The notes beneath the pieces are model-generated. The model saw only the letters and a program-made list of their open reading frames with translations, was not told the DNA's origin and did no database searches. From an uncultured Spirochaetota bacterium (GTDB lineage Bacteria; Spirochaetota; Brevinematia; Brevinematales; JAOACQ01), in the NCBI GenBank assembly GCA_963835575.1, contig CAWIGG010000002.1:198141-262140 (forward strand): a stretch of 64,000 bases of DNA. The letters run 5' to 3'. The position numbers were made by a program, and so were the translations under genes. Shown here piece by piece: positions 992 to 64,000 of the stretch (positions are counted from its first letter, which is position 1; each line of letters opens with the position of its first letter).

Positions 992-1062
992 AAAACCATA
1001 CTTAAGGTATTGTCAAATCAATACTATGAGTCTGCATAGATTTTATTGGAAGATTTTATAAT
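992..1062 (+). promoter_or_regulatory. Twin direct-repeat promoter motif upstream of GH9 gene
   Basis: AAAACCATACTTAAGGT (992-1008) and degenerate AAATCAATACTATGAGT (1015-1031) in 23-nt register. TATAAT at 1057-1062, ATG at 1124. Same architecture at four other loci. Confidence 0.5.
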
Positions 1063-3754: not shown

Positions 3755-5596
3755 ATGATAAAGAGAAACAAAGTGAAACTAATTTTATTAGGTTTAGGTG
3801 CAATGTTTTTTGTTCTCCAGTTTTCTACCTGCTCATTACAGTCTAATCAGGAAACTGGACAGCAAAACAATACGACGGCTGTCAATACACAGAAAGCCAC
3901 GGTTTCCAGCGTCGGGCGTCTGACAGGCGTCAACTGGTTCGGATTTGAAACCGGAAACTTCTGTCCCCATGGTCTCTGGTCCAGAGACTATAAATCCATG
4001 TTGAAGCAGATCAAAGACCTCGGTTTTAACTGTATTCGTATGCCCTGGTGCAACGATATGCTGTCGGCAACTCCCAACAGCATACAGATCAACGCTTCAG
4101 GCGTGGACGCGTACACAGGTCAGACCGGCCTGAACATGGACCTGGCCGGACTTTCTTCAATCCAGGTAATGGACAAGGTAATCGATGAGGCAACCAGGGT
4201 CGACGGTATAAAGATCATCCTGGACAACCATTCAAAGACACATGACAACTATAATAATGAAACATTATGGTACACATCATCCTGTTCGGAAAGCCAGGGT
4301 ATTTCGGATTGGCTTACTCTAATCAACCGTTATAAGAATAACGCGTATGTTTGCGGGGCCGATCTGAAGAACAAGCCTCATGGCAATATGACTACAGGTA
4401 TGAGACCGCCTGCGACCTGGGGTTATGATGAACCCGGTCAGGGAACGACAGACTGGAAAGCGGCCGCCGAAAGGATCGGTACCGCCATCCTTAACGCCAA
4501 TCCCAATATGATCATCATCGTGGAAGGCGTGGAATGCTATTACAATTATCCTACGGATACTGTTACCAACTTCTTCTGGTGGGGCGGCGAATTATCAGGT
4601 GTTGCAGACCATCCTATCACTGCTATTCCTTCTGCCCAGCTGATGTATTCTGTTCATGAGTACGGTCCCGAAGTCTATAATCAGTCCTGGTTCCAGGATT
4701 CCACATTCCCGAACAATATGCCTGCCATCTGGGACAAACATTACTATTTTATTAAAAAGAATGGCATAGGCTCTCTGTTCTTCGGTGAATTCGGCATAAC
4801 GGAATCCGCAGTAGAAGCCGGCGGAGTGGCAGCCACATGGTATAAGAACTTTATGGCATATATCGGAACCGCCAACAGCTGGACATTCTGGTGCATCAAC
4901 CCGGATTCCGGCGACACCGGCGGTATATTACAGAACAACTGGGTTACTGTAGAGCCGTCTAAATACGCGGTTTTGAAACCCTATCTGGCCGCTCAATTCT
5001 CGCCTCTCGGCGGAGCAAGTTCATCTTCATCCTCTACTGTATCTTCAGTTGCTGCGAGTTCGAGCCGGGCAGCATCCTCAGTGGCAGTCAGTTCGAGCAG
5101 ATCGAGCGCAGCTTCTTCAGTCGCTGCAAGCTCCAGCCGGGCCGCATCCAGCGTTGCTTCATCTATAGCCGCTAGTTCACGGTCCAGTGTTGCTTCTTCT
5201 GCAGCGGTTAGTTCGAGCCGGTCGAGCGCCGCATCCAGCGCCGCGGCTTCCAGTACTGCCGCTTCATCAGGCGGCGGATATGCTGTTAATTATACGGTTA
5301 ATAATGACTGGGGCGCAGGCGCCACATGCACGGTGACCGTTAAGAACAACAGCGCTACGGCTGTAAATGGATGGTCCTTAGTATGGACTTACGCTGGCAA
5401 TCAGACGCTGACGCAGATTTGGAACGCCACATATACCGCAAGCGGAGAGACCATTACCGTCACAAACGCAAGCTTTAACAATGTCATAAGCGTAAACGGC
5501 GGGACGCAGAGCTTCGGCTTCAATCTGAGCTACAGCGGGTCCAATGCAAAACCGGCTTCGTTCACTTTGAACGGAACGGCTTGCACAACATACTAA
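3755..5596 (+). CDS. GH5 cellulase-type lipoprotein - Ser linker - CBM2-like; acid/base Glu replaced by Lys
   Basis: AGGAGG RBS. Signal ending FSTC|S. GVNWFGFETGNFCPHGLWSRDYKSMLKQIKDLGFNCIRMPW. DLKNKPHG where paralogues have DLKNEPHG. Nucleophile region FFGEFG retained. Confidence 0.85.
   Translation: MIKRNKVKLILLGLGAMFFVLQFSTCSLQSNQETGQQNNTTAVNTQKATVSSVGRLTGVNWFGFETGNFCPHGLWSRDYKSMLKQIKDLGFNCIRMPWCNDMLSATPNSIQINASGVDAYTGQTGLNMDLAGLSSIQVMDKVIDEATRVDGIKIILDNHSKTHDNYNNETLWYTSSCSESQGISDWLTLINRYKNNAYVCGADLKNKPHGNMTTGMRPPATWGYDEPGQGTTDWKAAAERIGTAILNANPNMIIIVEGVECYYNYPTDTVTNFFWWGGELSGVADHPITAIPSAQLMYSVHEYGPEVYNQSWFQDSTFPNNMPAIWDKHYYFIKKNGIGSLFFGEFGITESAVEAGGVAATWYKNFMAYIGTANSWTFWCINPDSGDTGGILQNNWVTVEPSKYAVLKPYLAAQFSPLGGASSSSSSTVSSVAASSSRAASSVAVSSSRSSAASSVAASSSRAASSVASSIAASSRSSVASSAAVSSSRSSAASSAAASSTAASSGGGYAVNYTVNNDWGAGATCTVTVKNNSATAVNGWSLVWTYAGNQTLTQIWNATYTASGETITVTNASFNNVISVNGGTQSFGFNLSYSGSNAKPASFTLNGTACTTY
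5016..5269 (+). repeat. Ser-rich linker-coding degenerate tandem repeat
   Basis: ASSSSSSTVSSVAASSSRAASSVAVSSSRSS... up to GGGY. Confidence 0.8.
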
Positions 5597-5708: not shown

Positions 5709-6038
5709 ACAGAGAAAGCGTTTTAAAAAATAAAGGAGGATAAAAACCTGACTAAGGTTTTAAGTAATAACAGAAAAATAAGGTTTATGATAAAAAATTA
5801 TATTTTATAAAAAAGAAAGGGTTTTGAATCAAGAAAGGATATAATAAAAATATTTTATGGTATTGAAAGCATATCTTTTTTCACTCAGTCCTTTCCTTTA
5901 AGGCTTTATTACCCTTTTATTATTAATCTTTAACGATAAGAACGGGATGCGTTATTATGTTTTTATAATATTTTTTTAGTAAAATAATGGTATTGAGGTT
6001 AAAGTAGTACAAATATTTTAAAAAGGAGTGTGAAAGTT

Positions 6039-7964: not shown

Positions 7965-10781
7965 ATGAAGAAGGTCTTTGCAATGGTTTTAGTGATAATG
8001 GCATACCTGATTATAACAGCTTGTCAGGTAATGGTTTTCAATCATGATGAGACTATTCATGATAGAATAGGGAGCAAGGCCCTCCTTTCCAACGGAATTC
8101 CAACCGTGGCATGGGTTAAGGATATTAATGCGGGAGGCTATATCGACGGCGCGTCCATCGGCGGTTTCGGCGCGGGCACGATCACTCTTCGCTTTGATGG
8201 AAATTTTTACAGAGGAAGGCTGAATATCAGCGAGAGTAATATGACTGTCGATACAAGCTGTAACTTTTATATATACCAGAAGCCGTCCGGGCAGAGCGCC
8301 GTATTTAAAAAGCTTAACGCTGCGACTCTTGGTTCGGGCCAGGCAAATTATTATTCTCTCTTTCCGGTTTCCTGGGTTGATTATTATGGAAGCGCATTCA
8401 CGGCCAAAGTCAAAGTTAAGCAGTTCAGTCCGATCATTCCCGGCGACTACCAGAGAACAAGCTATCCGGTGGGCATTTATGTCTGGTCTATCTCGAATCC
8501 GACCAGTTCTCCATGCGATGTGGCCATCATGCTGACCTGGAACAATAATTTCAGCGGCAGTACGGCTGCGGCTTTTGTTTCTAATAATAATAAAGGCATC
8601 ATTTTACAGAGGAGCGGCACTTCGGCCGCCGCTGAAAAGAACCAGGGAGAGTTTACCCTGGCCTCCCAGGAACAAACCGGAGTTTCCGTCACATATGAAT
8701 CGGCGACAGCGGTCTCAACCCTGGAAAATGATTTCTCGACAAACGGCACTCTCAAAAATTCAACGGGCAGCCATACCAACGGCGCTGTTGCTTTCAAAGT
8801 AACGCTTGCTGCCGGTCAGTCCATAAATATTCCCATCGTCCTGGCATGGGATATTCCGATTGTCCAGCTGGGGAACAAGTGGTACAGGGAATACACCAGG
8901 TATTTCAGCCGTTCAGGACTGAATTCCTCCGCGATTGCGAATGAGGCTCTCAATAATTATACGGCCTGGCAGTCGTCTGTGGACAGCTGGCAGAATAACA
9001 TCATCAACAGTTCGGTATACCCGGATTGGCTGAAGACAACGCTCTTCAACGAACTCTATTATTATTTTGTAGGCGGGACAATCTGGGAGGCCGGAGCCGC
9101 TTCGGGCCAGGCTGATAACGCAAGCGAGGATATGTTCAGTCACATGGAATGCTACGATTACGCTTTTTACGGCACATCGGACGTCCGGTTCTACGGTTCG
9201 TGGCCTCTGGCATTGCTCTGGCCTAACCTGGATAAACAGGCCGTGAAGCAGTTCAGCGACAGCATCTATAATAATAGAAGCGACCGCCCGGCGGCGCTGG
9301 GCACATGCGCGCATGATTTCGGGACAACAAACAATGTCTTTACAATATGGAACGCTTATACATACAGGGATTCCACAACCTGGAAGGATCTTAATTCCAA
9401 GTTTGTCCTGATGGTTTACAGGGATTATGTCCTGACGGGCAAAAGCGACACGACATTCCTGAATTACTGCTGGACGTCCGTCAAAACGGCGATGACCAAG
9501 GTCAAGGGACAGGATACGGATTCCGACGGCCTTCCAAATTCCACTGGAATCGATCAGACTTATGATGATATGAGCCTCTCCGGCAATACGGCCTACTGCG
9601 GAAGCCTCTTCCTTGCGGCATGTCTTGCCGCCAAGCAGATCGCGCTGGCAATGGGAGATTCTTCAACCGCAAGCACCTACCAGTCCTGGTATGACCAGGG
9701 CAAGGCCAGCTTTGAATCCAAGCTCTGGAACGGTTCCTACTATAATATAGATACCGGCAGTTCGGCGACAAACAGGATCATGAGCGATCAGCTTTGCGGT
9801 GAGTGGTACGCAAAAGCGCTTGGTCTGGGTAATATTCTGGACAGTTCTCATATTTCGAGCGCTTTCACCGTGATCTATCAGAACAACTTTAAAAAATTCG
9901 ACAGCGGTACGCATGGTGTGGTCAATGTCATGACAAGCAGCGGTTCGATTGACAGCACAAGCTCCCAGACACGGGAGATGTGGGTCGGGACTGCCTGGGG
10001 CGTTACGGCGGGAATGATCCAGGAGGGATTGACATCGCAGGCGTCCGAGATCGGGAACAGCCTTTACAGTACGATCTATTTGAACAATCAGCTCTATTTC
10101 AGGACGCCGGAAGCCTGGCAGTCGGGGGTCTCATCTATAAGGGCTTATTATTATATGAGAGCCAATGCCGTTTGGGCTGTCAAATACGCTTATGATAACG
10201 CCGGAACACCGGCCAGCTCATCCTCATCAATCAGTTCGAGCGTTATATCGAGTGCGGCATCATCAACAGCTGTCAGTTCAAGTCTGTCTAGCGCTGCTTC
10301 ATCAACAGCAGTAAGCTCGAGCCGCTCAAGCGTTGCATCGTCAGTTGCGGTCAGTTCGAGCAGATCGAGCGTTGCATCGTCAGTTGCAGTCAGTTCGAGC
10401 CGGGCCGCATCCAGTGCGGCTGCGAGCGTTGCTTCCAGTACAGCCGCTTCATCAGGCGGCGGTTATGCTGTTAATTATACCGTCAATAACGATTGGGGCG
10501 CGGGCGCTACATGCACAGTTACTGTAAAGAACAATAGCGCAACAGCAGTAAACGGCTGGACCTTAGTATGGACATTCGCAGGTAATCAAACTCTGACACA
10601 GATATGGAACGCTGCATATACCGCAAGCGGAGAGACCATTACCGTCACAAACGCAAGCTTTAACAATGTCATAGGCGCGAACGGCGGGACGCAGAGCTTT
10701 GGTTTCAATTTGAGCTACAGCGGATCCAATGCAAAACCGGCTTCGTTCACTTTGAACGGAACGGCCTGCTCAGTTTATTAA
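7965..10781 (+). CDS. GH116 (GBA2-type beta-glucosidase family) lipoprotein - Ser linker - CBM2-like
   Basis: GAGGAG RBS before ATG 7965. Signal ending ITAC|Q. IGGFGAGTI; HMECYDYAFYGTSDVRFYGSWPLALLWP; GLPNSTGIDQTYDDMSLSGNTAYCGSLFLAACLAA, which matches the GH116 nucleophile and acid/base regions as I recall them. Confidence 0.8.
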   Translation: MKKVFAMVLVIMAYLIITACQVMVFNHDETIHDRIGSKALLSNGIPTVAWVKDINAGGYIDGASIGGFGAGTITLRFDGNFYRGRLNISESNMTVDTSCNFYIYQKPSGQSAVFKKLNAATLGSGQANYYSLFPVSWVDYYGSAFTAKVKVKQFSPIIPGDYQRTSYPVGIYVWSISNPTSSPCDVAIMLTWNNNFSGSTAAAFVSNNNKGIILQRSGTSAAAEKNQGEFTLASQEQTGVSVTYESATAVSTLENDFSTNGTLKNSTGSHTNGAVAFKVTLAAGQSINIPIVLAWDIPIVQLGNKWYREYTRYFSRSGLNSSAIANEALNNYTAWQSSVDSWQNNIINSSVYPDWLKTTLFNELYYYFVGGTIWEAGAASGQADNASEDMFSHMECYDYAFYGTSDVRFYGSWPLALLWPNLDKQAVKQFSDSIYNNRSDRPAALGTCAHDFGTTNNVFTIWNAYTYRDSTTWKDLNSKFVLMVYRDYVLTGKSDTTFLNYCWTSVKTAMTKVKGQDTDSDGLPNSTGIDQTYDDMSLSGNTAYCGSLFLAACLAAKQIALAMGDSSTASTYQSWYDQGKASFESKLWNGSYYNIDTGSSATNRIMSDQLCGEWYAKALGLGNILDSSHISSAFTVIYQNNFKKFDSGTHGVVNVMTSSGSIDSTSSQTREMWVGTAWGVTAGMIQEGLTSQASEIGNSLYSTIYLNNQLYFRTPEAWQSGVSSIRAYYYMRANAVWAVKYAYDNAGTPASSSSSISSSVISSAASSTAVSSSLSSAASSTAVSSSRSSVASSVAVSSSRSSVASSVAVSSSRAASSAAASVASSTAASSGGGYAVNYTVNNDWGAGATCTVTVKNNSATAVNGWTLVWTFAGNQTLTQIWNAAYTASGETITVTNASFNNVIGANGGTQSFGFNLSYSGSNAKPASFTLNGTACSVY
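10211..10454 (+). repeat. Ser-rich linker-coding degenerate tandem repeat
   Basis: Units 10308-10346 and 10347-10385 both encode AVSSSRSSVASSV but differ at 6 synonymous positions. Confidence 0.85.
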
Positions 10782-12172: not shown

Positions 12173-12246
12173 AAATTGAAGAACGGCAGTGCAATAGCCG
12201 GTTCGTTAAAGCAGAACATTGACACTGCAAAAAAATGACTGAATCA

Positions 12247-12277
12247 ACCTCCCTCTAAATCAGAGGGAGGTTTTTTT
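12247..12277 (+). terminator. Rho-independent terminator
   Basis: ACCTCCCTCT-aaatc-AGAGGGAGGT + TTTTTTT. Confidence 0.8.
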
Positions 12278-12300: not shown

Positions 12301-12373
12301 AAAATCCATACTCAAGGTACTGTTAAATCCATACTCAAGGTTTGCCATATTTTAAAAAGTATTTGTTTATAAT
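12301..12373 (+). promoter_or_regulatory. Twin direct-repeat promoter motif upstream of GH9 gene
   Basis: AAAATCCATACTCAAGGT (12301-12318) and TAAATCCATACTCAAGGT (12324-12341) in 23-nt register. TATAAT 12368-12373. ATG 12424. Confidence 0.55.
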
Positions 12374-12423: not shown

Positions 12424-15021
12424 ATGAAAAGTATTTTTAAGAACAGTTTATCATTATTATCTTTATTTGCTCTCCTATTCTTCTTTTTATTTTTTGCTTC
12501 CTGTTCTCTCAATTTTAATAATGGTAAAAACTCCGAAGGTTTTTCAGGATTGAATCATGCGGCAACAAAAGCGACATCATTCAATTACGCCGATGCGTTC
12601 GCCAAGTCGATTCTTATGTATGATGTGAACTGGTGCGGACCGGATGCCGGTTCGAACCGCCTTCCATGGAGGGGTCCATGCCACACAAGCGACGGCGCCG
12701 ATGTGGGACTGGACCTGTCCGGCGGTTTTCATGACTGCGGCGATCATGTCAAGTTCGGCCAGACGCAGTGTTACTCCGCCGCTACCCTTGGGTGGGCATA
12801 TTATGAGTTCAAGGATGTTTTCGTTGCCAAAGGTCAGGATGCTTATCTGCTGAAAGTTCTCAAGCATTTTACGGATTATTTTCTGAAATGCTTCCCGAAC
12901 GCTAACACATTCTATTATCAGTGCGGAGACGGGGCGACCGACCATCCCTACTGGGGTCCGCCTGAACTGCAGACCCTGTCCATCAGCACCAGACCGACTC
13001 TCTACTCGGCCACTCCGACAGCGCCGGGTTCCGATGTCTGCGGCGATGCAGCCGCGGCCCTGGCTCTCATGTACCTGGATTACAAAGATAAGGATTCGGC
13101 TTACGCCTCAAAATGTCTGACGGCGGCTCAGGGTATTTATACGCTTGGGAAAACCTATCCAGGCCTCTCCCAGAGCGGCGGGTTTTACGGGGCGAGCATT
13201 TACCTTGATGATCTCAGCTGGGGCGCCTTATGGCTTTATATGGCAACGAGCAACAGCACCTATATGACTGATATCAGCAACTATTTGGTCAGTGCGGGCA
13301 TCTCTGAAGCGAACCAGTACGCCAACAGCTGGACTTACTGCTGGGATAACGTATGGGCCGGCGTGTTTGTCAAATTGGCCCAGATCACGAATAGGGGACT
13401 TTATAAATACTGCGCGGATTATAATATGAATTACTGGGTTTCCAATATCTCCAGAACCCCCGGCGGTTTCTGCTTCCTCAATTCCTGGGGAAACTGCAGA
13501 TATGTCTCGGCCCAGTGCATGCTGGCAATGGTATATAATAAAACCGTATCCAACCAGGCCTATGTTGATTTCACAAAATCACAGATAGATTATATACTGG
13601 GTAATAATCCGCTGAGCCTTTCGTATGAATGCGGTTTTGGAACGAACTATCCTCATTTCCCGCATAACCGCGCGGCAAGCGGACGGTTTGAATATCCGCC
13701 TGCCAATGAACATAAGACCGATCCGGAAAGGCATCTGCCTTATGGATTTCTGGTTGGCGGCCCGGATGCCAACGATAATTTCAGCGATGATCCCAATAAC
13801 TTTGTATTCACTGAGGGCGGTATCGATTACAATGCCGGGTTTGTCGGAGCTCTCGCGGGCATGACCGCAATTTACGGCATGTCTCAGACTCCGGAAGCGA
13901 CGCCCGGGATAGAGTCCACGAACTCACCTTACTATATCAGCGCCTATGTCGCTTCAGAGAACAATCAGGGGTCGACCATTTATGCCTATTTGAATAATAT
14001 ATCGGTTCTTCCCCCGCATTATGAGACAAACTTGTCATTCAGGTACTTTGTGAATTTGAGCGAATACTTTTCCACGAATTCGAACGTGACCAGCGCCGTG
14101 ACATGCTCCGTCTATTACGGACCTACCAATGCGGTTGTGTCGGTATTACAGCCATGGGATGCGGCAAACGGGATTTATTACATCGAAGCCAGTGCTCCGA
14201 ATTCGCTGTTATACGGAAAAGTTCCCTTTGAGTTTTCCCTTCATGCCTATGACTACACATGCTGGAATCCGTCTAACGATTTCTCCAGAACAGGACTGAC
14301 AACCGCCACGAACGATGTCATGACAGTCTATATTCCGGTGTACCGGAACGGGGTGCTGATATACGGCAATGAACCTCCGAAAGGCGGTTCATCCAGCAGT
14401 ACGGCGTCTTCAACAGCAGTCAGCTCAAGCCGGGCCGCATCCTCAATAGCAGCAAGCTCGAGCCTGGCCGCGTCCAGCGTCGCTTCTTCTGCGGCAGTCA
14501 GTTCGAGCCGCTCCAGCGCGGCATCTTCAGCGGCGGTCAGTTCCAGCAGATCGAGCGCTGCATCTTCAACAGCAGTCAGCTCAAGCCGGGCATCAAGTGT
14601 TACAAGCAGTGCCGCGTCATCGGCTGCCGTGAGTTCGAGCCGGGCTGTGTCCAGTGCGGCTTCAAGTGTCGCGGTTTCCAGCACAGCAGCCTCGTCAGGC
14701 GGATATGCAGTTAATTATGCCGTCAATAACGATTGGGGCGCAGGCGCCACTGTGACCGTGACGATTAAGAATAATAGCACGACAGCGGTCAATGGATGGA
14801 CACTGGTCTGGACTTACGCCGGCAATCAGGCAATCACGCAAATATGGAACGCCACGCAGACATCTAGCGGCGAAACGATTACTGTAAATAGCTTAAGCTA
14901 TAGTGGAACAATCGGCGCGAACGGCGGGACTCAAAGTTTCGGTTTTAATCTGAGCTACAGCGGAACAAACGCCAAGCCGGCTGCGTTTACTTTGAACGGG
15001 ACTGCCTGTTCACTATATTAA
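12424..15021 (+). CDS. GH9 endoglucanase - CBM3c - Ser linker - CBM2-like; lipoprotein
   Basis: AGGAGG RBS. Signal ending FASC|S. NRLPWRGPCHTSDG, GGFHDCGDHVKFG, FVFTEGGIDYNAG. CBM3c-like LSFRYFVNLSEY. Confidence 0.9.
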   Translation: MKSIFKNSLSLLSLFALLFFFLFFASCSLNFNNGKNSEGFSGLNHAATKATSFNYADAFAKSILMYDVNWCGPDAGSNRLPWRGPCHTSDGADVGLDLSGGFHDCGDHVKFGQTQCYSAATLGWAYYEFKDVFVAKGQDAYLLKVLKHFTDYFLKCFPNANTFYYQCGDGATDHPYWGPPELQTLSISTRPTLYSATPTAPGSDVCGDAAAALALMYLDYKDKDSAYASKCLTAAQGIYTLGKTYPGLSQSGGFYGASIYLDDLSWGALWLYMATSNSTYMTDISNYLVSAGISEANQYANSWTYCWDNVWAGVFVKLAQITNRGLYKYCADYNMNYWVSNISRTPGGFCFLNSWGNCRYVSAQCMLAMVYNKTVSNQAYVDFTKSQIDYILGNNPLSLSYECGFGTNYPHFPHNRAASGRFEYPPANEHKTDPERHLPYGFLVGGPDANDNFSDDPNNFVFTEGGIDYNAGFVGALAGMTAIYGMSQTPEATPGIESTNSPYYISAYVASENNQGSTIYAYLNNISVLPPHYETNLSFRYFVNLSEYFSTNSNVTSAVTCSVYYGPTNAVVSVLQPWDAANGIYYIEASAPNSLLYGKVPFEFSLHAYDYTCWNPSNDFSRTGLTTATNDVMTVYIPVYRNGVLIYGNEPPKGGSSSSTASSTAVSSSRAASSIAASSSLAASSVASSAAVSSSRSSAASSAAVSSSRSSAASSTAVSSSRASSVTSSAASSAAVSSSRAVSSAASSVAVSSTAASSGGYAVNYAVNNDWGAGATVTVTIKNNSTTAVNGWTLVWTYAGNQAITQIWNATQTSSGETITVNSLSYSGTIGANGGTQSFGFNLSYSGTNAKPAAFTLNGTACSLY
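14389..14697 (+). repeat. Ser-rich linker-coding degenerate tandem repeat
   Basis: SSSSTASSTAVSSSRAASSIAASSSLAASS... up to SGGY. Confidence 0.8.
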
Positions 15022-15108: not shown

Positions 15109-15264
15109 AAATAAGTAAAATATATTATTAAAGAAGAGGAAGGCCTGTATTGAGGATAAATTAATAAGAGTCTAAGTTAAGGTTTTGTTATCTCGGAAAA
15201 ACGGGGATTTTCGAAAGTTTAAACTGAGCCTGAAAATTTAAAATTTTAGATTAGGAGGATAAAT

Positions 15265-17826
15265 ATGAAAAAAGCTGTTATGCTTTTTCTGGTTCTTTCA
15301 ATTTTTGCATTTTTTTGGATGTTTTCATGCAGTGTTATGCCTGGAGGTAAAGGCAATAATGTAATCAGTCATGGTACAGATTCCAGGGCAACCAGCTTCA
15401 ATTATGCCGATGCCTTCTCCAAAGCCATCATGTTTTATGAGGCGAGCTGGTGCGGGCCTGACGCGGGATCCAACCGGCTGCCTTGGAGGGCGGCATGCCA
15501 CACGAGCGACGGCGCGGATGTCGGGCTGGATTTGACCGGCGGTTTTCATGACTGCGGCGACCATGTCAAGTTCGGTCTGACACAGGTCTACTCGGCCGCG
15601 ACACTGGGCTGGGCTTATTATGAATACAAGGATGTTTTCACGGCTAAAGGCCAGGACGGCTATCTGTTGAGGATATTAAAGCATTTTACGGATTATTTCC
15701 TGAAGTGCTACCCGAATGCAACGACCTTTTACTACCAGTGCGGCGAAGGAAATTCAGACCATATCTACTGGGGCCCGCCGGAACTGCAGACTACCGCTAT
15801 TACGCCGAGGCCCACTCAATATGTTGCCAATACTTCTACACCAGCGTCGGATGTCACGGCTACCGCTGCGGCAGCCCTGGCTCTGATGTATATGAACTAT
15901 CTGGATAAAGACTCGGCTTATGCCAATAAATGCCTGACTGCGGCTAAAAGCCTCTATACTTTTGCTAAAACCTATCTGGGCTTAAGCCAGAGCGGCGGAT
16001 TTTATACTTCCAGCGGCTACTGGGACGATCTCTGCTGGGGGGCTGTCTGGCTTTATACGGCAACAACAAACAGCAGTTATCTGAATGATGTGAATACTTT
16101 CCTCTCCAATAAAAATATCACCGATTCGAGCCCCTACAATAATCACTGGACCCACTGCTGGGACGATCAATGGGGAGGGGTATTTTTAAAACTGTCCCAG
16201 ATAACCAACAGGCCTCTGTTCAAATTCATAGTCGAGGATAACCTGAGCTACTGGATGACCAATGTGGCCAGAACACCTGCCGGTTTTTGCTATTTTAATT
16301 CATGGGGAAACTGCAGATATGTGGCCGCGGAATGCATGCTGGCGCTTGTCTATTATAAATCCACAACAAATCAGGCGTATCTTGATTTTGCCAAATCGCA
16401 GATAGATTATATTCTGGGCAATAATCCGAATGGCTTTTCATGCGAAGTGGGCTTTGGGAACAACTATCCGCACTTTCCTCACCACCGTGCGGCCAGCGGA
16501 CGGTTTGAGTATCCGCCTGCAAATGAATCCTCGAAAGATCCGGAAAGGCACCTGCTTTACGGAGCGCTTCCAGGCGGCCCCTCAGACGGCAGCGATAACT
16601 ATGTGGATGATATAAGCCAGTACGCGAGCACCGAGGTCGGTATTGATTATAACGCCGGATTTGTGGGAGCTCTGGCCGGGATAGTCCAGCTTTACGGCAT
16701 GTCGCAGACCCCGGAAGCCACACCCGGCATAGAAACCAATGCACAGTATTATGTTACTGCCTATATATCGGAGGAGAATAATACGCATTCAACGGTCATG
16801 GCCTATCTGAATAATATTTCAGTCCTTCCGCCGCATTATGAGACAAATCTTTCTTTCAGATATTTTGTGAATTTAAGCGAGTACACCAATCCGACCAGCG
16901 CCGTGACCGCTTCTCTCTGGTGGGCGCCGTCGAACGCTGTCATCTCGGCACTGCAGCCATGGGATACTGCGAACAGTGTTTATTATGTGGAACTCAAAGC
17001 CACGGGCATGCCGATGTACGGCCCAATTCCTTTTGAATTTGCGGTGAATGCGTATTCCTATTCCTGCTGGAACCCTTCCAATGATTATTCTAGGACAGGA
17101 CTGACCACTTCCACCAACAGCGTCATTACCACTTATATCCCGGTATACAGGAACGGGGTTCTGATATTCGGTAATGAACCTCCGAAAGGCGGTTCATCCA
17201 GCAGTACGGCGTCTTCAACTGCTGTCAGCTCGAGCCGGGCCGCATCCTCAATAGCAGCAAGCTCGAGCCTGGCTGCGTCCAGCGTAGCTTCTTCCGCGGC
17301 AGTAAGCTCCAGCCGGTCCAGTGCGGCATCTTCAACGGCGGTCAGTTCGAGCAGATCGAGCGTTGCATCTTCAACTGCCGTCAGCTCGAGCCGGGCCGCA
17401 TCCAGTGCGGCTTCAAGTGTTGCCTCCTCGGTTGCTGTGAGTTCCAGCCGGGCCGCAAGTGTCGCTTCCAGCGTCGCGGCTTCCAGTTCGGCAGCCTCAT
17501 CAGGCGGTTACGCTGTTAATTATACGGTTAATAACGACTGGGGCGCCGGAGCCACAGTTACGGTAACAATGAAGAACAATTCCGCTTCGGCCCTTTCGAG
17601 CTGGTCTCTTGTTTGGACATATGCAGGCAATCAACAGATCACCCAGATCTGGAGCGCCACGCAGACAACCAGCGGCGAGACAGTTACGGCCGTCAATCTC
17701 AGCTATAACGGCACGATCGGGGCAAACGGAGGGACACAGTCCTTCGGCTTTAACATGAGCTACAGCGGATCGAATGCCAAACCGACGGCTTTTACGCTGA
17801 ACGGGACGGCATGTACGACCTATTAG
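15265..17826 (+). CDS. GH9 endoglucanase - CBM3c - Ser linker - CBM2-like; lipoprotein
   Basis: AGGAGG RBS. Signal ending MFSC|S. Same GH9/CBM3c motifs as 12424 (GGFHDCGDHVKFG, YASTEVGIDYNAG, LSFRYFVNLSEY). Confidence 0.9.
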   Translation: MKKAVMLFLVLSIFAFFWMFSCSVMPGGKGNNVISHGTDSRATSFNYADAFSKAIMFYEASWCGPDAGSNRLPWRAACHTSDGADVGLDLTGGFHDCGDHVKFGLTQVYSAATLGWAYYEYKDVFTAKGQDGYLLRILKHFTDYFLKCYPNATTFYYQCGEGNSDHIYWGPPELQTTAITPRPTQYVANTSTPASDVTATAAAALALMYMNYLDKDSAYANKCLTAAKSLYTFAKTYLGLSQSGGFYTSSGYWDDLCWGAVWLYTATTNSSYLNDVNTFLSNKNITDSSPYNNHWTHCWDDQWGGVFLKLSQITNRPLFKFIVEDNLSYWMTNVARTPAGFCYFNSWGNCRYVAAECMLALVYYKSTTNQAYLDFAKSQIDYILGNNPNGFSCEVGFGNNYPHFPHHRAASGRFEYPPANESSKDPERHLLYGALPGGPSDGSDNYVDDISQYASTEVGIDYNAGFVGALAGIVQLYGMSQTPEATPGIETNAQYYVTAYISEENNTHSTVMAYLNNISVLPPHYETNLSFRYFVNLSEYTNPTSAVTASLWWAPSNAVISALQPWDTANSVYYVELKATGMPMYGPIPFEFAVNAYSYSCWNPSNDYSRTGLTTSTNSVITTYIPVYRNGVLIFGNEPPKGGSSSSTASSTAVSSSRAASSIAASSSLAASSVASSAAVSSSRSSAASSTAVSSSRSSVASSTAVSSSRAASSAASSVASSVAVSSSRAASVASSVAASSSAASSGGYAVNYTVNNDWGAGATVTVTMKNNSASALSSWSLVWTYAGNQQITQIWSATQTTSGETVTAVNLSYNGTIGANGGTQSFGFNMSYSGSNAKPTAFTLNGTACTTY
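17194..17502 (+). repeat. Ser-rich linker-coding degenerate tandem repeat
   Basis: SSSSTASSTAVSSSRAASSIAASSSLAASS... Confidence 0.8.
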
Positions 17827-17874
17827 GTGATCGGTCAGAAATGAAATATAAGAAATAATTTCAAAGGAGGATTT

Positions 17875-19845
17875 GTGAAAAATTCAAAATTCGCTTTGCT
17901 TTCAGGATTGATGCTATTGGTACTTCCATTATGTTTGACATGCAGCCTGAATATGTCAGGTAACAATGACAAAGGCGCCATTTCTGAAACAAGCGTGAAA
18001 AAAGCGACCACAGGTTTCTCCATCAGCGGCAGGAATCTGATTGACGCCAATGGCAATCAGTTCATTTTAAGAGGTATTGCCCATGCGCATGTCTGGTATG
18101 AGAGCCAGATTACCAATGCTTTGAGCGGCATCAAAAGCGTGGGTGCCAACTGCGTCAGGATTGTCCTGGGCTGCGGAGTCCAGTGGGGCCCGAATACAGC
18201 CGCCGATGTGTCCAATGTGATCGCATTATGCAAGGCAAACAGGCTGATCGGAATACTCGAAGTGCATGATACCACCGGTTACGGGGATGCCTCAGCGGCA
18301 TGCAGCCTGGCCACGGCGGTGACATACTGGCAGTCGATCAAGAGCGTCCTGGACGGACAGGAAAAATACATCATTATCAATATCGGGAATGAGCCGTACG
18401 GCAACAACAATGTCGCCAACTGGGTCGCTGATACGGAGAACGCTATTAAATCGATGAGAAGCGCCGGGTTCCAGCATACGCTGATGGTAGATGCTCCAAA
18501 TTGGGGGCAGGATTACTCTTTTATGATGCTGACCAATGCCACAGCGGTGTTTAATTCCGATGTGAACAAGAATACGATTCTCTCGGTACATATGTATGAA
18601 GTTTATCAAACCATCACACCCATTACAAATTATATAACTCAATTTATGGCCTTGAATCTTCCCCTTGTGATCGGCGAGTTTGGATGTTCAAATAACGGGC
18701 AATATGTGGATGCGGCCGATGTCATGGCGACAGCACAGTCGCAGGGAATCGGCTACATGGCCTGGTCCTGGTGTGGGAACAGCTCCCCAGTTCTGGATAT
18801 GGTCGTTAATTGGGATGCCAGCCAGTTGACGAGCTGGGGAAATATGGCGATTAACGGTGCCAACGGCATTAAAGCCACTGCTAAAGAATGCACGGTATTC
18901 AGCGGTGTATCATCCAGTTCGGTTTCCAGTATTTCGTCCGCCGTGAGCTCCAGCCGCTCGAGTGTCGCATCTTCAGTGGCTGTGAGTTCGAGCCTGTCCA
19001 GTATTGCTTCTTCAGTTGCTGTCAGCTCCAGCCAGGCGAGCAGTATAGCCAGTTCCGCTTCATCCTCAGTCCAGTATCAGAATATTACTCTTCCGTTCAG
19101 CTTTGACGGCGCGGGAGAATTATACTGGCAGACAAGCGGTACGATCACCAGCATGAATTCCTGGAATCTTGATGCGCTGGATGTGAATGGGACAAGCTTT
19201 AAAAATGTGTATGTCGCCGGAAGCAGCCTGCCCGCGAAACAGAATGGATACTACTACATTCACTATAAGGGGTCATATTCCTATAGTCATGTTGAAATTG
19301 CCGGCACATCAGGATCGGTGAGCAGCAGTTCGATAGCTGTCAGTTCCAGCCCGGCAAGCAGTGTCGCTTCTTCAATAGCGGCAAGCTCCAGCCGTGCAGC
19401 CTCTTCAATAGCAGCTAGCTCTAGCAGATCGAGTATTGCATCTTCAGTAGCAGTCAGCTCAAGCCTGGCCGCATCCAGTGTCGCTTCCAGTGCGGCATCG
19501 AGCACGGCTTCCAGCACAAGCGGCGGGTATGCAGTGAATTATACCGTCAATAATGACTGGGGCGCGGGCGCCACAGTCACGGTAACCATAAAGAACAATT
19601 CCGCAACGGCCCTTTCGAGCTGGTCTCTTGTCTGGACATTTGCGGGCAATCAGCAGATCACTCAGATCTGGAGCGCCACGCAGACAACCAGCGGCGCGAC
19701 CGTTACTGCGAATAGTTTAACTTATAACGGCGCGATCGGCGCGAACGGCGGGACGCAGAGTTTCGGCTTCAATTTGAACTACAGCGGCTCGAACGCCAAA
19801 CCGACGTCGTTTACTCTAAACGGGACGGCATGTACGCTCTATTAG
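17875..19845 (+). CDS. GH5 (subfamily-8-like) beta-mannanase - linker - X module - linker - CBM2-like; lipoprotein
   Basis: GTG start 5 nt after AAGGAGG, 48 nt after the previous stop (operonic). Signal ending LTC|S. FILRGIAHAHVWY, GANCVRIVL, ILEVHDTTG, INIGNEPYG, MVDAPNWGQD, VIGEFG. Confidence 0.8.
   Translation: MKNSKFALLSGLMLLVLPLCLTCSLNMSGNNDKGAISETSVKKATTGFSISGRNLIDANGNQFILRGIAHAHVWYESQITNALSGIKSVGANCVRIVLGCGVQWGPNTAADVSNVIALCKANRLIGILEVHDTTGYGDASAACSLATAVTYWQSIKSVLDGQEKYIIINIGNEPYGNNNVANWVADTENAIKSMRSAGFQHTLMVDAPNWGQDYSFMMLTNATAVFNSDVNKNTILSVHMYEVYQTITPITNYITQFMALNLPLVIGEFGCSNNGQYVDAADVMATAQSQGIGYMAWSWCGNSSPVLDMVVNWDASQLTSWGNMAINGANGIKATAKECTVFSGVSSSSVSSISSAVSSSRSSVASSVAVSSSLSSIASSVAVSSSQASSIASSASSSVQYQNITLPFSFDGAGELYWQTSGTITSMNSWNLDALDVNGTSFKNVYVAGSSLPAKQNGYYYIHYKGSYSYSHVEIAGTSGSVSSSSIAVSSSPASSVASSIAASSSRAASSIAASSSRSSIASSVAVSSSLAASSVASSAASSTASSTSGGYAVNYTVNNDWGAGATVTVTIKNNSATALSSWSLVWTFAGNQQITQIWSATQTTSGATVTANSLTYNGAIGANGGTQSFGFNLNYSGSNAKPTSFTLNGTACTLY
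18907..19068 (+). repeat. Ser-rich linker-coding repeat (linker 1)
   Basis: SSSSVSSISSAVSSSRSSVASSVAVSSSLSS... Confidence 0.75.
19069..19305 (+). other. Unassigned ~80-aa X module (putative carbohydrate-binding)
   Basis: VQYQNITLPFSFDGAGELYWQTSGTITSMNSWNLDALDVNGTSFKNVYVAGSSLPAKQNGYYYIHYKGSYSYSHVEIAG, bracketed by two linkers. Recurs at 34548 and 36720. Confidence 0.6.
19306..19521 (+). repeat. Ser-rich linker-coding repeat (linker 2)
   Basis: TSGSVSSSSIAVSSSPASSVASSIAASSSRAASS... Confidence 0.8.
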
Positions 19846-19905
19846 GAATAGGAATGCGTCAGCATGATCGCCAAAAATTTTGATGCGGTAAAATAATATT
19901 GAATC

Positions 19906-19945
19906 ATCCTCCCTCCGGATTTCGGAGGGAGGATTTTTTATTTTA
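19906..19945 (+). terminator. Rho-independent terminator
   Basis: ATCCTCCCTCCG-gattt-CGGAGGGAGGAT + TTTTTA. Near-duplicate of the terminator at 23446. Confidence 0.8.
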
Positions 19946-20019
19946 ATAATCTTCATGATTTTATAGAAATGTATCCCTGGTATCTGCGTCTTTTCATGTT
20001 ATTATTATTTTTTTAAATA

Positions 20020-20047
20020 TTGCATTTTTTTTAAACAGGTATATAAT
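20020..20047 (+). promoter_or_regulatory. Sigma-70-like promoter candidate for the sensor kinase gene
   Basis: TTGCAT (20020-20025), 16-nt spacer, TATAAT (20042-20047), 20 nt before TTG start 20067. Confidence 0.4.
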
Positions 20048-20066
20048 TAAGTAACTGGGGGTTCGT

Positions 20067-22460
20067 TTGGAAACTAAACAAAATCCCGGTAAAAAGGCGC
20101 TTCCCATATTGTTTACATTAGCGGGTTGTCTAATCCCTGTTTTTATTATTTTGATAGTCTATTCTATATACCGCATTCCGGAAAAAGATAAATCCAGCAT
20201 AATTCAATTGACCGGTGTCTGGAAAATTCAGGAAGGTTTAAACCCGGATTGGACCAGGCCGGGCCTGGATGATTCAGGCTGGAAAGAAATCAAATTACCC
20301 GGAAGCTTTTATAACCAGGGCTTTCATGAAAAGTACCTGACATTAAGAAAAGATTTTACTTTAAATACAAATATGGAAAACCAGGACCTGTTTTTATTCA
20401 TCGGCGGCACCGGCGGTTCAATGGGTATGGTTTATATGAACGGATTTAAAATCGGCGAAATCGGAATGATTGTGAACGGCAGAAAGACACAGGGGGCCGA
20501 TGAAAAATTCGGGTTTTATATTAATAAACATAATATCTTAAACGGGGCGGCCGATGTTAAAAATACAATCAGCATTGAATTTGATACTATAACGCCGAGC
20601 TATGACGGTGTGCAGGACCCAAGGATCCTTCTGGGTACCTACAATAGTTTAAGATCATATTATGAGAAAAATATTTCGGCAAGTTTGTTTTTTCAATACG
20701 GGATCATATTTACCGGCATATTTGCCCTGATCATTTTATTTTTACTTTTGATGACTGAATGGGGATCACCCAACCGCAATAAATATGTTTCTACCATATT
20801 CTTTGTGTTTTCGGCAATTTTATATAATTTATTTTTTACGAATGTTTTTGTCAGATATGTTTTTGATACAATATTACTATCCAAATTATTAATTTTATCG
20901 ATTGTTTTTTTATGCCCGGCAACCCTGGATTATGTCCAGTATTTCTTTACCAATAAGACGAATATATTGTCAAAAATAAACAGAGTGGTTTGTTTGCTTG
21001 TTGTTGTAATGGTTTTTGCCATTCAGGATTTTGTCATAGTCAAATTGATCCATGGCTATTTTATCATGTACTTTTTTGTTGTAATTGTATATATATGTGC
21101 CTTTTGTGTGGCCCATACTCTTAAAGCCCGGGAAAAGTACAATGCCGTTGTTATTACTGTTTCGATTATAATCGGCGCGGTTTCAGGTATTTCCGACCTG
21201 TTGACCAACTTGGGATTGATTCATATGCCGCTTTTATTCAGCATTACCATTTCCATTTTTATTGTGATGAGCGCCATGGTGATTATCGCTGATTTTATAA
21301 AGATCAGCGATTATAATAAAACACTTTCTCTGGAATTGAGCCAGTTGAACGTGAACCTTGAAGCCAAGGTTTCTGAAAGGACAAAGGAATTGAGCCAGGC
21401 CAATGAAAAACTGAAGAAGCTGGATACTGTTAAAAACGATTTTATTGCCAATATTACCCACGATTTCCGGTCTCCTCTCACAGTCATACTGAATACGGCG
21501 GATTTAAACTTAAAAGAACACAAAGACAATCCTTATAAAAGTGAATTTGAAATGATACTGTCTTCTTCCTACCGCATGAAAAATTATATTGACCGGCTTC
21601 TGGATTTAGCGAAGATGGATGCGGGGGCCATAAAACTAAAAATCAGAAAAACAGATATTGTACAATTTTTAGAAACAATCGCAAGTTATTATCAATCGGC
21701 GATAATAAATACCAACATCAAAATTATAACCAGTTTTCCTGAAATTCCGGTGGAAAATTTTTATACTGACGAGGAAAAATTGGATGAGGTAATCAGCAAT
21801 ATCCTGTCCAATGCGATCAAATATGTCAGTATTGAAAACGGGATTATAGAAATTGAGGTGAGAGATGAACCGGATACGGTCCTGATTATTATATCAGACA
21901 ATGGCATAGGAATACCTGAAGATAAACTGGAATTTATTTTTGAGAGGTTTGAACAGCTGGAAAGCGGGAGAAATACAAAATTCAGCGGGAGCGGGATCGG
22001 TCTTGCTTTTGCAAAACAGCTGGTGGAATTTATGAAAGGAAAAATATGGGCGGAATCGGGAGGTGAAAATAAGGGCTCCAGATTTATGATCAGGCTGCCG
22101 AGAGGCAAAGCCGCTTTTGATGATCAAGAAATTTCAACCGAATCAATGAAAGCGACATCCTTATCCCGTTTCAAGAAATTGGTAGAGTATGATATCGGTA
22201 GAAAAATTCAAAAAGAAGAACTGGAATTTTATATCAAGGAAAGAAATAAAGAAAACGAATTTGTCCTCAAAAAAAGCGTGATATTAATAATTGACGATGA
22301 AAAATCAATCGCCGGAATCGTGATGAACTATCTTCTAATCAATGGATTTGAAAACTTTATTATCGCTAATAACGGTAAAACCGGCCTGAAAGCCGTGTAT
22401 CAATACACGCCGGATGTCATATTGTGCGATTATAACATGCCCGGGGCTCACGGGCAGTGA
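20067..22460 (+). CDS. Sensor histidine kinase (7TMR-DISMED2-like sensor + 7 TM + HisKA + HATPase_c) with N-terminal half of a receiver domain; 5' part of a frameshifted hybrid gene
   Basis: TTG start. Extracytoplasmic LTGVWKIQEGLNPDWTRPGLDDSGWKEIKLPGSF...LTLRKDFTL. Multiple TM helices. H-box ANITHDFRSPLT. DNGIGIP, GSGIGLAFAKQLV. REC start VILIIDDEKS...DVILCDYNMPG, then a premature stop. Confidence 0.8.
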   Translation: METKQNPGKKALPILFTLAGCLIPVFIILIVYSIYRIPEKDKSSIIQLTGVWKIQEGLNPDWTRPGLDDSGWKEIKLPGSFYNQGFHEKYLTLRKDFTLNTNMENQDLFLFIGGTGGSMGMVYMNGFKIGEIGMIVNGRKTQGADEKFGFYINKHNILNGAADVKNTISIEFDTITPSYDGVQDPRILLGTYNSLRSYYEKNISASLFFQYGIIFTGIFALIILFLLLMTEWGSPNRNKYVSTIFFVFSAILYNLFFTNVFVRYVFDTILLSKLLILSIVFLCPATLDYVQYFFTNKTNILSKINRVVCLLVVVMVFAIQDFVIVKLIHGYFIMYFFVVIVYICAFCVAHTLKAREKYNAVVITVSIIIGAVSGISDLLTNLGLIHMPLLFSITISIFIVMSAMVIIADFIKISDYNKTLSLELSQLNVNLEAKVSERTKELSQANEKLKKLDTVKNDFIANITHDFRSPLTVILNTADLNLKEHKDNPYKSEFEMILSSSYRMKNYIDRLLDLAKMDAGAIKLKIRKTDIVQFLETIASYYQSAIINTNIKIITSFPEIPVENFYTDEEKLDEVISNILSNAIKYVSIENGIIEIEVRDEPDTVLIIISDNGIGIPEDKLEFIFERFEQLESGRNTKFSGSGIGLAFAKQLVEFMKGKIWAESGGENKGSRFMIRLPRGKAAFDDQEISTESMKATSLSRFKKLVEYDIGRKIQKEELEFYIKERNKENEFVLKKSVILIIDDEKSIAGIVMNYLLINGFENFIIANNGKTGLKAVYQYTPDVILCDYNMPGAHGQ

Positions 22461-23361
22461 AGTTCATGACGCGATAGTTGATAACCCGAAATACAATCAA
22501 ATTCCATTTATATTTTTGTCCGCTGTGGCGGATAGAAATTTAATTATTGAACGCAGGGAAAAAGGGGCAAATGCTTATTTAAAGAAACCGATAGATGAAA
22601 ATGATCTTGTGCTGACGGTAAATCTTCATCTGAAAAAATATTTTGAATATTTAAAAACCCTGGAGCTTGCGGCCATAGATGAACTAACAGGATTATACAA
22701 CAGGCGGGAAATCATCAAGCGGCTGCATGAAGAGCTGGCTGTCAGAAAATTTATGGAATTATCGCTTATATTTTTTGATGTAGACCATTTTAAAGAAATA
22801 AACGACCGGTACGGCCATCCCATCGGCGATCGGGTTTTAAGAACTATAGGAAGAATCATAAAAGGAAACCTCAGGCCCTATGATATATCGGCAAGATATG
22901 GAGGAGATGAGTTTCTGATAATCCTGCCTCAAACAAATTCGGAAAATGCCGTTCGGGTAGCGGAAATATTAAAAAAGAGTTTCGCCGAAGAAAAAATCCT
23001 TCAAAGTGAGAATGTTCTTGCTATTACCTGCAGTTTCGGTATTTCATCACTGATCGGCAACCAGAAAGACCTTGAAAAAGAACTGCATTTGAAGGATTTA
23101 AAAAAGATTTATGAGATAAAAGATTCCGCGAAAGCAGATTGGAAAATGATTCGGGAGACAAAAGAAAAGATTGCCGAAGTTCTAATAAGTTTTGCCGACA
23201 AAGCGCTTTATCAATCAAAAAAAACGGTGTGCGAAGACTGCGGATATTATTCTGAAAAAGAAGAAGATTTTCATAATAACAAATGCCCGAAATGCGGAAG
23301 TAAAAAACTGTCCGGCAGGAATAAAGTCAGTCTGTATTCGCATGATGAAAGCGCTGGTTAA
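22414..23361 (+). CDS. Rest of receiver domain + GGDEF diguanylate cyclase + C-terminal Cys4 zinc ribbon; 3' part of the frameshifted hybrid gene
   Basis: From 22447 reads LTGSEVHDAI...FIFLSAVAD...ANAYLKKP (REC continuation). FFDVDHFKEINDRYGHPIGDRVL, ARYGGDEFLIILP. CEDCGYY...CPKCGSKK. Confidence 0.8.
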   Translation: MSYCAIITCPGLTGSEVHDAIVDNPKYNQIPFIFLSAVADRNLIIERREKGANAYLKKPIDENDLVLTVNLHLKKYFEYLKTLELAAIDELTGLYNRREIIKRLHEELAVRKFMELSLIFFDVDHFKEINDRYGHPIGDRVLRTIGRIIKGNLRPYDISARYGGDEFLIILPQTNSENAVRVAEILKKSFAEEKILQSENVLAITCSFGISSLIGNQKDLEKELHLKDLKKIYEIKDSAKADWKMIRETKEKIAEVLISFADKALYQSKKTVCEDCGYYSEKEEDFHNNKCPKCGSKKLSGRNKVSLYSHDESAG

Positions 23362-24355: not shown

Positions 24356-24437
24356 TCAATTATTTTTTCTACAGGAAGATAAGAATGCTCCGGATGTCTT
24401 TTCATGTAATCTATCTTAAAAAATTTCTGTTAAGCAA

Positions 24438-24510
24438 AAAAACCATACCCAAAGTACTGTCAAATCCATACTCAAGGTTTGCCCTGTTTTAAAAAGCGGT
24501 TATTTATAAT
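24438..24510 (+). promoter_or_regulatory. Twin direct-repeat promoter motif upstream of GH9 gene
   Basis: AAAACCATACCCAAAGT (24439-24455) and AAATCCATACTCAAGGT (24462-24478) in 23-nt register. TATAAT 24505-24510. ATG 24555. Confidence 0.55.
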
Positions 24511-27208: not shown

Positions 27209-27240
27209 TATACCGTCCTTCGTTATGAAGGGCGGTATAT
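27209..27240 (+). terminator. Hairpin terminator candidate
   Basis: ATACCGTCCTTC-gttat-GAAGGGCGGTAT; weak T tract. Overlaps the ORF-track start 27225, which I reject. Confidence 0.45.
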
Positions 27241-39993: not shown

Positions 39994-40065
39994 AAAAACC
40001 GTACTCAAAGTATTATAAAAACCGTACTAAAGGTTTAATAATGTTATGCAAGCGAGATTTATAAT
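39994..40065 (+). promoter_or_regulatory. Twin direct-repeat promoter motif (long leader to 40396)
   Basis: AAAACCGTACTCAAAGT (39995-40011) and AAAAACCGTACTAAAGGT (40017-40034) in 23-nt register. TATAAT 40060-40065. Confidence 0.5.
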
Positions 40066-43157: not shown

Positions 43158-43217
43158 AGCAGAACGGCTGTCATGAATTTCAAGGGTTCATCGTTTAAAT
43201 CTTACCATTGGTAGGAT

Positions 43218-43290
43218 AAAAACCATACCCCGGGAACGGGTAAAACCATACCTTTTGTCCAGACGGATTAATGCGGTTGTTTTTTATAAT
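43218..43290 (+). promoter_or_regulatory. Twin direct-repeat promoter motif upstream of GH8 gene
   Basis: AAAAACCATAC (43218-43228) and AAAACCATAC (43242-43251) in 23-nt register. TATAAT 43285-43290. ATG 43421. Confidence 0.5.
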
Positions 43291-63865: not shown

Positions 63866-64000
63866 CCGGATTCCATTAATTCCTTCATTAAATCATACCT
63901 GATAATTCTTAAACAATTCAACAGACATATTCATGTCGCTTATCACAATAAAGTTTAATCATACTTATAGTCGGACAAAAACAGTACTTTTCGTACGGAC

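Follow-up and report, generated by a model that had tools for sequence, protein, structure and literature searches.

A tandem element at the promoters of a hydrolase gene cluster

A 64,000-nucleotide stretch of an uncultured Spirochaetota genome (assembly GCA_963835575.1, contig CAWIGG010000002.1, positions 198,141 to 262,140, forward strand; hereafter the window) carries, at five sites in a glycoside hydrolase gene cluster, a compact element consisting of two tandem 23-bp units at a fixed distance from a TATAAT box. With a probability of roughly 0.6, the two units form a tandem operator at which one sequence-specific activator, encoded elsewhere in the genome, would bind, and the element would mark a lineage-specific (hemi)cellulose-utilisation regulon. 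This reading is favoured because a perfect -10 hexamer without a -35 hexamer is combined with a weak site abutting the -35 region and a symmetric, stronger site 23 bp further upstream, and because the sites and their spacing are conserved across species. The sequence of the motif and the regulon are new, while the architecture, tandem activator sites at a promoter lacking a -35 hexamer, is a textbook one; a literature search for ATAC-N5-GTAT, in which subscription journals were only partly covered, returned no match.

The ten units at the five sites, labelled w1 to w5, are all intergenic, located on the plus strand upstream of plus-strand genes, and described by AAAWYCRTAC-N5-GT, with an offset between the two units of exactly 23 nt in five of five cases. 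Site w1 occupies 992..1037 (distal unit 992-1014, AAAACCATACTTAAGGTATTGTC; proximal unit 1015-1037, AAATCAATACTATGAGTCTGCAT), w2 12302..12347 (12302-12324 and 12325-12347), w3 24439..24484 (24439-24461 and 24462-24484), w4 39995..40040 (39995-40017 and 40018-40040), and w5, together with a weak third unit, 43196..43264 (third 43196-43218, TAAATCTTACCATTGGTAGGATA; distal 43219-43241; proximal 43242-43264). At all five sites, TATAAT starts 42-43 nt past the start of the proximal unit, which corresponds to 38-39 nt past its CCATAC core. The coordinates of the five loci, the exact register and the core-to-TATAAT distance given in the preliminary description, which used w2 as its reference copy, were all confirmed.

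In a position weight matrix (PWM) scan of the window, the ten units scored 17.8-25.5 bits (24.8 and 17.8 bits for the distal and proximal units of w1), while the best other match reached 14.8 bits. The full pattern of twin unit, N32-34 and TATAAT was found five times, against 0.00 in 100 shuffles. The 18-mer originally proposed as the repeat is significant as well, with seven matches in the window at up to three mismatches against 0.14 expected, yet AAAWYCRTAC-N5-GT describes the units better, and w5 keeps only that part. A further in-register unit upstream of w1 (969-991, plus strand) is weak, with 3.8 bits, which is above the 99th percentile of the background.

Sites w2 and w3 are paralogous promoters, in which the proximal units are identical and the downstream flanks 62% identical, and the window therefore holds about four independent instances. 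Among the non-paralogous promoters, the flanks are 22-50% identical, which is near random for w1, w4 and w5, while the units are 61-89% identical. Two loci near 6030 and 15265 had been regarded as degenerate single copies of the repeat. Copies are indeed present there, but as decayed paralogues: the relic upstream of 6030 (5742..5800, plus strand) is a paralogue of the w4 promoter in which the units are mostly lost and TATAAT has become TTATAT, and the relic upstream of the GH9 gene at 15265 (15139..15200, plus strand) is a diverged relative of w2 and w3 without a TATAAT. Both score below 9 bits, and the loss of TATAAT from copies that lost the units suggests that promoter and units decay together.

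A probable sixth twin site lies at 63955..64000 on the plus strand, 18 kb past the cluster and downstream of a SurA/PpiC-like gene (62540-63865). It consists of TTAATCATACTTATAGTCGGACA and AAAACAGTACTTTTCGTACGGAC, starting at 63955 and 63978 in the 23-nt register (12.8 bits in the PWM scan; E = 0.0017 over model positions 6-45), and it is cut by the end of the window, so that the expected -10 hexamer near 64021 and the target gene fall outside. This site suggests that the regulon reaches beyond the hydrolase cluster.

Core promoters and transcription units

The TATAAT box of w1 (1057..1062, 42 nt past the proximal start, without a -35 hexamer) is predicted to drive a gene for a glycoside hydrolase (GH) with carbohydrate-binding modules (CBM), GH9-CBM3-CBM2 (1124-3643), and probably also the GH5-CBM2 gene at 3755-5596. 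The w2 box (12368..12373, 43 nt past the proximal start) would drive a GH9-CBM3-CBM2 gene (12424-15021), the w3 box (24505..24510) a GH9-CBM3-CBM2 gene (24555-27182) together with a GH5-like gene (27225-29156), the w4 box (40060..40065) a CBM6-CBM2 protein gene (40396-43098) behind a leader of about 330 nt, and the w5 box (43285..43290) a GH8-CBM2 gene (43421-45211), all on the plus strand. A sigma-70 consensus scan found no -35 hexamer at 16-18 nt from any of these five boxes; at w2, a TTGCCA is present 20 nt from TATAAT. An extended -10 (TGn) was found in two promoters, both from other lineages (L117 and L119; L numbers denote DNA stretches used for comparison). Strong terminators are located just upstream of w2 (12246-12272), w4 (39925-39947) and w5 (43121-43149), which argues that each of these sites heads a transcription unit.

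The w4 leader (40066-40395) shares blocks such as GGTTTTGAATnnAGAAAGGATATAA and GTCCTTTC with the paralogous segment 5800-6029 upstream of 6030, and has no Rfam family match. An Rfam search of the window returned a group II intron remnant only, and neither the motif nor the long leaders gave a match.

Anatomy of the distal and proximal units

The anatomy of the element was counted over 15 distal and 15 proximal units from 15 promoters of the window and of other lineages. Positions A0-A2, C5, T7-A8-C9, G15 and T16 are invariant in both classes, and the distal units further keep A17 (15/15), Y18, K19, R20 and T21, with the GTA of positions 15-17 seen in 13-15 of 15. The distal consensus, AAA-AYCRTAC-N5-GTAYKRT, is thus an A-tract followed by a 19-bp imperfect dyad. 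In the proximal units, the left arm is kept and GTA is replaced by GTC or GTT, position 17 being C in 10 of 15 (GTCY), and this difference between distal and proximal units persists across lineages. Mirrored matches between the arms numbered 60 in the distal units against 27.8 +/- 4.2 in arm-shuffled controls, and 41 in the proximal units against 21.6 +/- 3.8. The distal unit outscores the proximal one in 10 of the 15 promoters, including all five of the window.

The symmetry is most evident in the perfect distal palindromes, namely AACCATAC-CTAGA-GTATGGTT in L115 and ATCATAC-N5-GTATGAT in the low-GC group A. The arms are perfect over 8 nt in L115b and measure 7 nt in four of the five group A orthologues and 6 nt in L119, where an odd left arm is mirrored on the right (TAGTAC-TTAAA-GTACTA). 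What were earlier termed direct repeats are in fact imperfect dyads in a tandem, co-oriented arrangement, with a systematic distal/proximal difference. A palindrome across the junction of the two units, GTAYKRTT-AA-AAYCRTAC, was also considered and ranked lower; its centre would be at about -54.5, and the best-conserved distal left arm would be left without a partner. Numbering TATAAT as -12 to -7 would place the dyad centres at about -43 (proximal), -66 (distal) and -89 (third unit), and with TATAAT as the -10 the proximal unit would span about -55 to -33. L115a and L133 clearly possess a third upstream unit in register, and w5 and w1 have a weak one.

Conservation and absence in other genomes

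The closest GH9 relative with DNA at hand, L115 (37% GC, 68% identity), has the same layout twice: three units in the 23-nt register and a TATAAT before a CBM6/CBM64 gene, and two units and a TATAAT before the leader of a GH10 gene. The organisms of the window and of L115 are related: the window organism's Prc homologue is the second-best match of the L115 Prc protease (57% identity). For the GT39 and Prc proteins, identity to the best named homologues is no higher than 45-49%, and these homologues are spread over several phyla. The outer-membrane efflux (OEP), Prc and Bat-like genes suggest a diderm lineage, and Goldbacteria, with their GH5/8/9/44 content (PMC7031533), were considered as a possible identity.

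A metagenome scan for twin unit, N32-34 and TATAAT yielded 21 stretches, of which 13 belong to the family of the element. These comprise L115-like contigs (L115/L137), L119/L123 and five species of a group with 27-33% GC. The element precedes a GH9 lipoprotein gene in L119/L123, with a second site before a BsuPI-like gene in L123, and an orthologous gene for a 200-aa CBM4_9 lipoprotein in the five species. It is therefore present at the same TATAAT distance, with diverged flanks, in at least three other uncultured lineages, and the distance from the proximal-unit start to TATAAT is 42-44 nt in 15 of 15 promoters. When the five species are aligned, the twin unit (46 bp) is seen to be kept, as are TATAAT and the ribosome-binding site, while the flanks, the N5 spacers and the spacer between unit and TATAAT are not, which is a classic phylogenetic footprint.

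The element is absent from the GH9/GH48/CBM2 clusters of other lineages (L138, L141, L142/143), which indicates that it is not tied to GH9 as such, and no match was found in 52 kb of DNA without carbohydrate-active enzyme (CAZyme) genes, taken from L144, which belongs to the window organism, and from L145 and L147, which represent two sister genomes. With the fixed geometry seen elsewhere, the missing -35 hexamer and this absence from non-CAZyme DNA, the comparison supports the initial proposal of a regulon signature formed by tandem activator sites abutting the -35 region.

A scan of a genome collection with the twin core gave at least 114 stretches, and among the matches listed almost all were chance matches or unrelated repeats; the latter include a Bacteroidales element (TTGAAAACCATACC), a 23-nt tandem array of Treponema RUI344 and Microcoleus repeats. 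A twin match in L041, a metagenome-assembled genome of Firestonebacteria, lies before icd/mdh-like genes and was rejected, since G15, TATAAT and a CAZyme gene are all missing there. L115 also contains a repeated non-coding element of about 0.9 kb (9060-9990 and 12570-13500) between the promoter/upstream gene and the GH9 and GH10 genes, without an Rfam match. L119 has the reverse complement of this element's start (CCCCGCTGTGGAGGG) immediately upstream of the motif.

An activator operator and its alternatives

In the activator reading, a helix-turn-helix dimer would anchor on the distal dyad, and a second dimer would be recruited cooperatively, probably in a signal-dependent manner, to the weaker proximal site, where it may replace the missing -35 contact and recruit the sigma-70 holoenzyme as class II activators do. 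At promoters with three units, a third cooperating dimer might take part. The signal is presumably a breakdown product of cellulose or hemicellulose, or a pathway fed by a sensor of such a product. A comparable arrangement is known from the LysR-type promoters of BenM, CatM and CatR, in which a recognition site at about -65 is joined by an activation site at about -35 and the weak proximal occupancy constitutes the ligand-dependent activating step (PMC8407307). In both cases, a strong dyad anchor stands about two helical turns above a weaker, less symmetric site abutting the -35 region, and the predicted centres at about -66 and -43 match the layout in which some 50 bp are occupied by a tetramer or a pair of dimers. 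Unlike in LysR-type systems, the dyad RTAC-N5-GTAY corresponds to T-N9-A and not to the T-N11-A of the LysR box, no divergent LysR gene, the usual neighbour of such targets, nor any other helix-turn-helix gene adjoins the sites in the window, L115, L119, L123 and L124, and the element serves many scattered operons in a 23-bp register with a possible third unit upstream.

Several points weigh against an activator that reads tandem dyads. No regulator gene of any kind stands beside the sites read in the window and in the same four stretches, so that no protein is linked to the motif, and the earlier statement that the window encodes no DNA-binding regulator holds with small open reading frames (ORFs) included. 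The element is found on only about 5 of the 11 transcription units of the cluster. We infer the role of TATAAT as a -10 hexamer, and hence the -43 and -66 positions, from sequence, as we do protein binding, activation and the signal, and the position of a site alone does not separate activation from repression. Moreover, the left arm and the AAA tract are far better conserved than the right arm, the orientation is always the same, and w5 keeps left arms only.

Because of this imbalance between the arms, a serious though unlikely variant is that the operator does serve an activator, but one that reads direct repeats asymmetrically, at about 18 bp per unit, such as an AraC/XylS-type monomer with two helix-turn-helix motifs or a LytTR/OmpR response regulator. 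The invariance of AAAWYCRTAC, G15 and T16 in both units with a fixed orientation to the gene, the A-tract that is not mirrored, and the state of w5 are all consistent with such a reader, as are the higher scores of the distal units and the abutment of the proximal unit on the -35 position, a strong-distal/weak-proximal pair being the logic of araI1/I2. AraC/XylS half-sites (araI1-I2, and XylS at Pm) likewise form two tandem units of about 17-18 bp two turns apart, strong distally and weak proximally, with the proximal site overlapping the -35 region, where the -35 hexamer itself is poor, and they belong to the activator arm of a sugar-utilisation regulon. This variant is disfavoured by the clear dyad symmetry of the distal units and by the mirroring of arm variants in L119 and group A. 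The register also differs, being 23 bp here and 21 bp in AraC, XylS and LytTR site pairs; the sequences are unrelated to AraC/XylS sites, and the window has no AraC-family gene. LytTR sites, which are 9-bp direct repeats with a 12-bp gap, differ from the 10-nt arm, the 13-nt gap and the inverted partner arm within the unit described here, no 11-bp direct periodicity of the OmpR/PhoB type is seen, and no gene for such a regulator was found near any site read.

Less probable still is a repressor or dual regulator that would block the contacts of the alpha C-terminal domain and of sigma region 4 until freed by an inducer, with basal transcription from TATAAT alone. Palindromic operators at many cellulase genes are the rule for the LacI-type repressors CelR and CebR of actinobacteria, whose operator TGGGAGCGCTCCCA is found time and again before cellulase genes and, like the element, marks out a regulon for cellulose use. 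In addition, the proximal unit reaches to about -33, and the TGn of L117 and L119 could allow transcription without an activator. However, most promoters have neither a -35 nor an extended -10, and unaided transcription from them should be weak; no part of the sites enters the core promoter, and they occupy upstream positions where activators typically bind; the conserved weak-proximal/strong-distal asymmetry is not needed for simple occlusion. The CelR/CebR operator differs in being a single 14-bp repressor site overlapping the promoter or leader, and the window holds no such box, the only match to TGGGAGCGCTCCCA being intragenic with three mismatches, against 2.05 expected by chance.

The idea of a dedicated alternative sigma factor, with the repeat serving as its extended -35, fails on several grounds and is very improbable. 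In Clostridium thermocellum and relatives, the sigma-I/RsgI cellulosome promoters have the form AAA-N13-14-CGWA, read by an alternative sigma factor, and they resemble the present case in that a dedicated cis signature is common to many (hemi)cellulase genes, the sigma-I factors being tied to extracellular polysaccharide sensing (PMC4711584). The AAR of unit 1, 13 nt and the C(G/A)TA of unit 2 are superficially like this rule (PMC4711584), and CGTA or AGTA occurs in the proximal units of w4, L115b and L123b. In the sigma-I case the signature is the promoter itself, whereas here a canonical TATAAT, invariant at a fixed distance, goes with an operator that is repeated upstream of it. Between the end of the conserved arm and this sigma-70 -10 lie 32-34 nt, and there are two to three copies of the unit, of which the distal one is best conserved and has no upstream partner. 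Only 3 of 15 proximal units conform to the sigma-I rule, the other 12 having CATA in place of CGWA. The 64-kb window contains neither a sigI-rsgI operon nor any other gene for a sigma or anti-sigma factor, and the lineage looks diderm (OEP, Prc), while sigma-I is described in Bacilli and Clostridia (PMC10575876).

A non-regulatory repeat, copied along with gene duplications in the cluster or representing the end of a mobile element, would fit the paralogy of w2 with w3 and of w4 with the region upstream of 6030, as well as the similar AAAACCATAC repeats in a 23-nt register in unrelated contexts (the Bacteroidales element and the Treponema array), but it is scarcely credible given the unrelated flanks of w1, w4 and w5 beside their conserved units, the conservation in other lineages, where the genes that follow are not homologous and the flanks have diverged, and the loss of TATAAT from the paralogous copies that lost the units.

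Regulator candidates and a possible link to c-di-GMP

The sole signalling gene in the cluster (20067-23361) encodes a carbohydrate-sensor hybrid kinase with 7TMR-DISM, REC and GGDEF domains, and on paper this embedded sensor would make cyclic di-GMP (c-di-GMP), as the preliminary description had it. Near the junction 22441-22447, one receiver domain is split in halves between the hybrid kinase ORF and the REC-GGDEF ORF that follows it. If a G is taken out of the GGGG run (about 22443-22446), ...DYNMPGLTGSEVHD... is restored, and the two ORFs become one 7TMR-DISM/HisKA/HATPase/REC/GGDEF protein of about 1100 aa. The split is either a long-read homopolymer error or a real frameshift/pseudogene.

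A link between c-di-GMP and the twin operator is speculation. Its most explicit form, a hitherto unknown master activator of the lipoprotein-anchored CBM2/CBM64 cellulases whose DNA binding is gated by c-di-GMP from the 7TMR-DISM/HisKA/REC/GGDEF sensor kinase of the cluster, is improbable. The PWM scan of the window found no motif in the upstream region of the sensor gene itself, and in L115, L119, L123 and L124 the motif has no gene for a diguanylate cyclase (GGDEF) beside it. If the link were real, it would constitute a circuit from polysaccharide through c-di-GMP to transcription of cellulases in an apparently diderm uncultured lineage, and we know of no described cellulolytic bacterium with such wiring.

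The BldD box, 5'-TNAC(N)5GTNA-3', is a 13-bp pseudo-palindrome recognised by BldD, a helix-turn-helix protein that needs c-di-GMP, bound at its C-terminal domain, to form the dimer (PMC4151990). The inner AC-N5-GT core and its spacing are common to the box and the distal units (RTAC-N5-GTAY). Unlike in the box, the outer base is R and not T in the units, and BldD is an actinobacterial repressor of developmental genes, with no BldD-like gene known in the present case. The likeness is of interest only because a sensor kinase-diguanylate cyclase is embedded in the cluster, and it serves as a lead and not as a test.

L140, from another GH9 lineage, provides a second case of c-di-GMP and sugar sensors beside cellulase genes: at 15858-22670, the genes flanking a cellulase gene encode proteins with a sugar-binding domain (Peripla_BP), which is fused either to GGDEF or to PAS plus a helix-turn-helix of the LuxR type. 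These LuxR-type and GGDEF sugar sensors near a GH9 gene were considered as a lead to the regulator, but the stretch has one weak unit only (E = 0.006), and the lead was set aside.

Genomic setting of the cluster

The segment 1-45211 of the window encodes about 17 glycoside hydrolases and binding proteins (GH9 four times, GH5, GH8, GH10 twice, GH12, GH116, CBM6, CBM64). All 17 have a nearly identical C-terminal CBM2, a lipoprotein signal peptide (...[AS]C[S]...) and Ser/Ala-rich linkers. Two ORF starts are probably wrong: for the GH10 gene annotated from 37782, the likely ATG at 37735 would restore the signal peptide, and for the GH5 gene annotated from 29477, the likely start is near 29504, matching the paralogue at 31374. 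Next to the cluster, on the minus strand (45951-49303), are genes for a GT39 (PMT-like) and a GT87-like membrane glycosyltransferase, which may be involved in linker glycosylation of the hydrolases.

A group II intron remnant (23612-24360) with three Rfam matches (domains D1-D4 and the 3' end) and a truncated reverse-transcriptase ORF (23927-24325) is located between the sensor gene and w3, and ends about 80 nt before the w3 distal unit. Directly after the stop codons of two CBM2 genes, a conserved element of about 150 nt (598-745 and 29324-29476, 81% identity) contains two GC-rich hairpins, the second with a T-run in one copy only; it has no Rfam match and may simply be a duplicated 3' flank. 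Further downstream, 51292-60635 is a defence/mobile island of lower-GC flavour, with an Eco57I/MmeI-type restriction-modification fusion, an SMC/AAA ATPase, an S1/P1 nuclease and a RhuM-family gene.

Significance of the element

The element offers a compact cis signature of about 70 bp, highly specific in that no false match occurred in the 52 kb of control DNA, and with it the whole lignocellulose regulon of these uncultured bacteria could be catalogued. Likewise, it could be used to find the regulator by DNA pull-down, by DNA affinity purification sequencing (DAP-seq), or by phylogenetic profiling of motif-positive against motif-negative genomes. It might also provide an inducible promoter together with its regulator. 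The host bacteria display lipoprotein cellulases with a C-terminal CBM2 or CBM64 and have no cultured relatives, and for this lineage a handle on how these cellulases may be switched on would be new.

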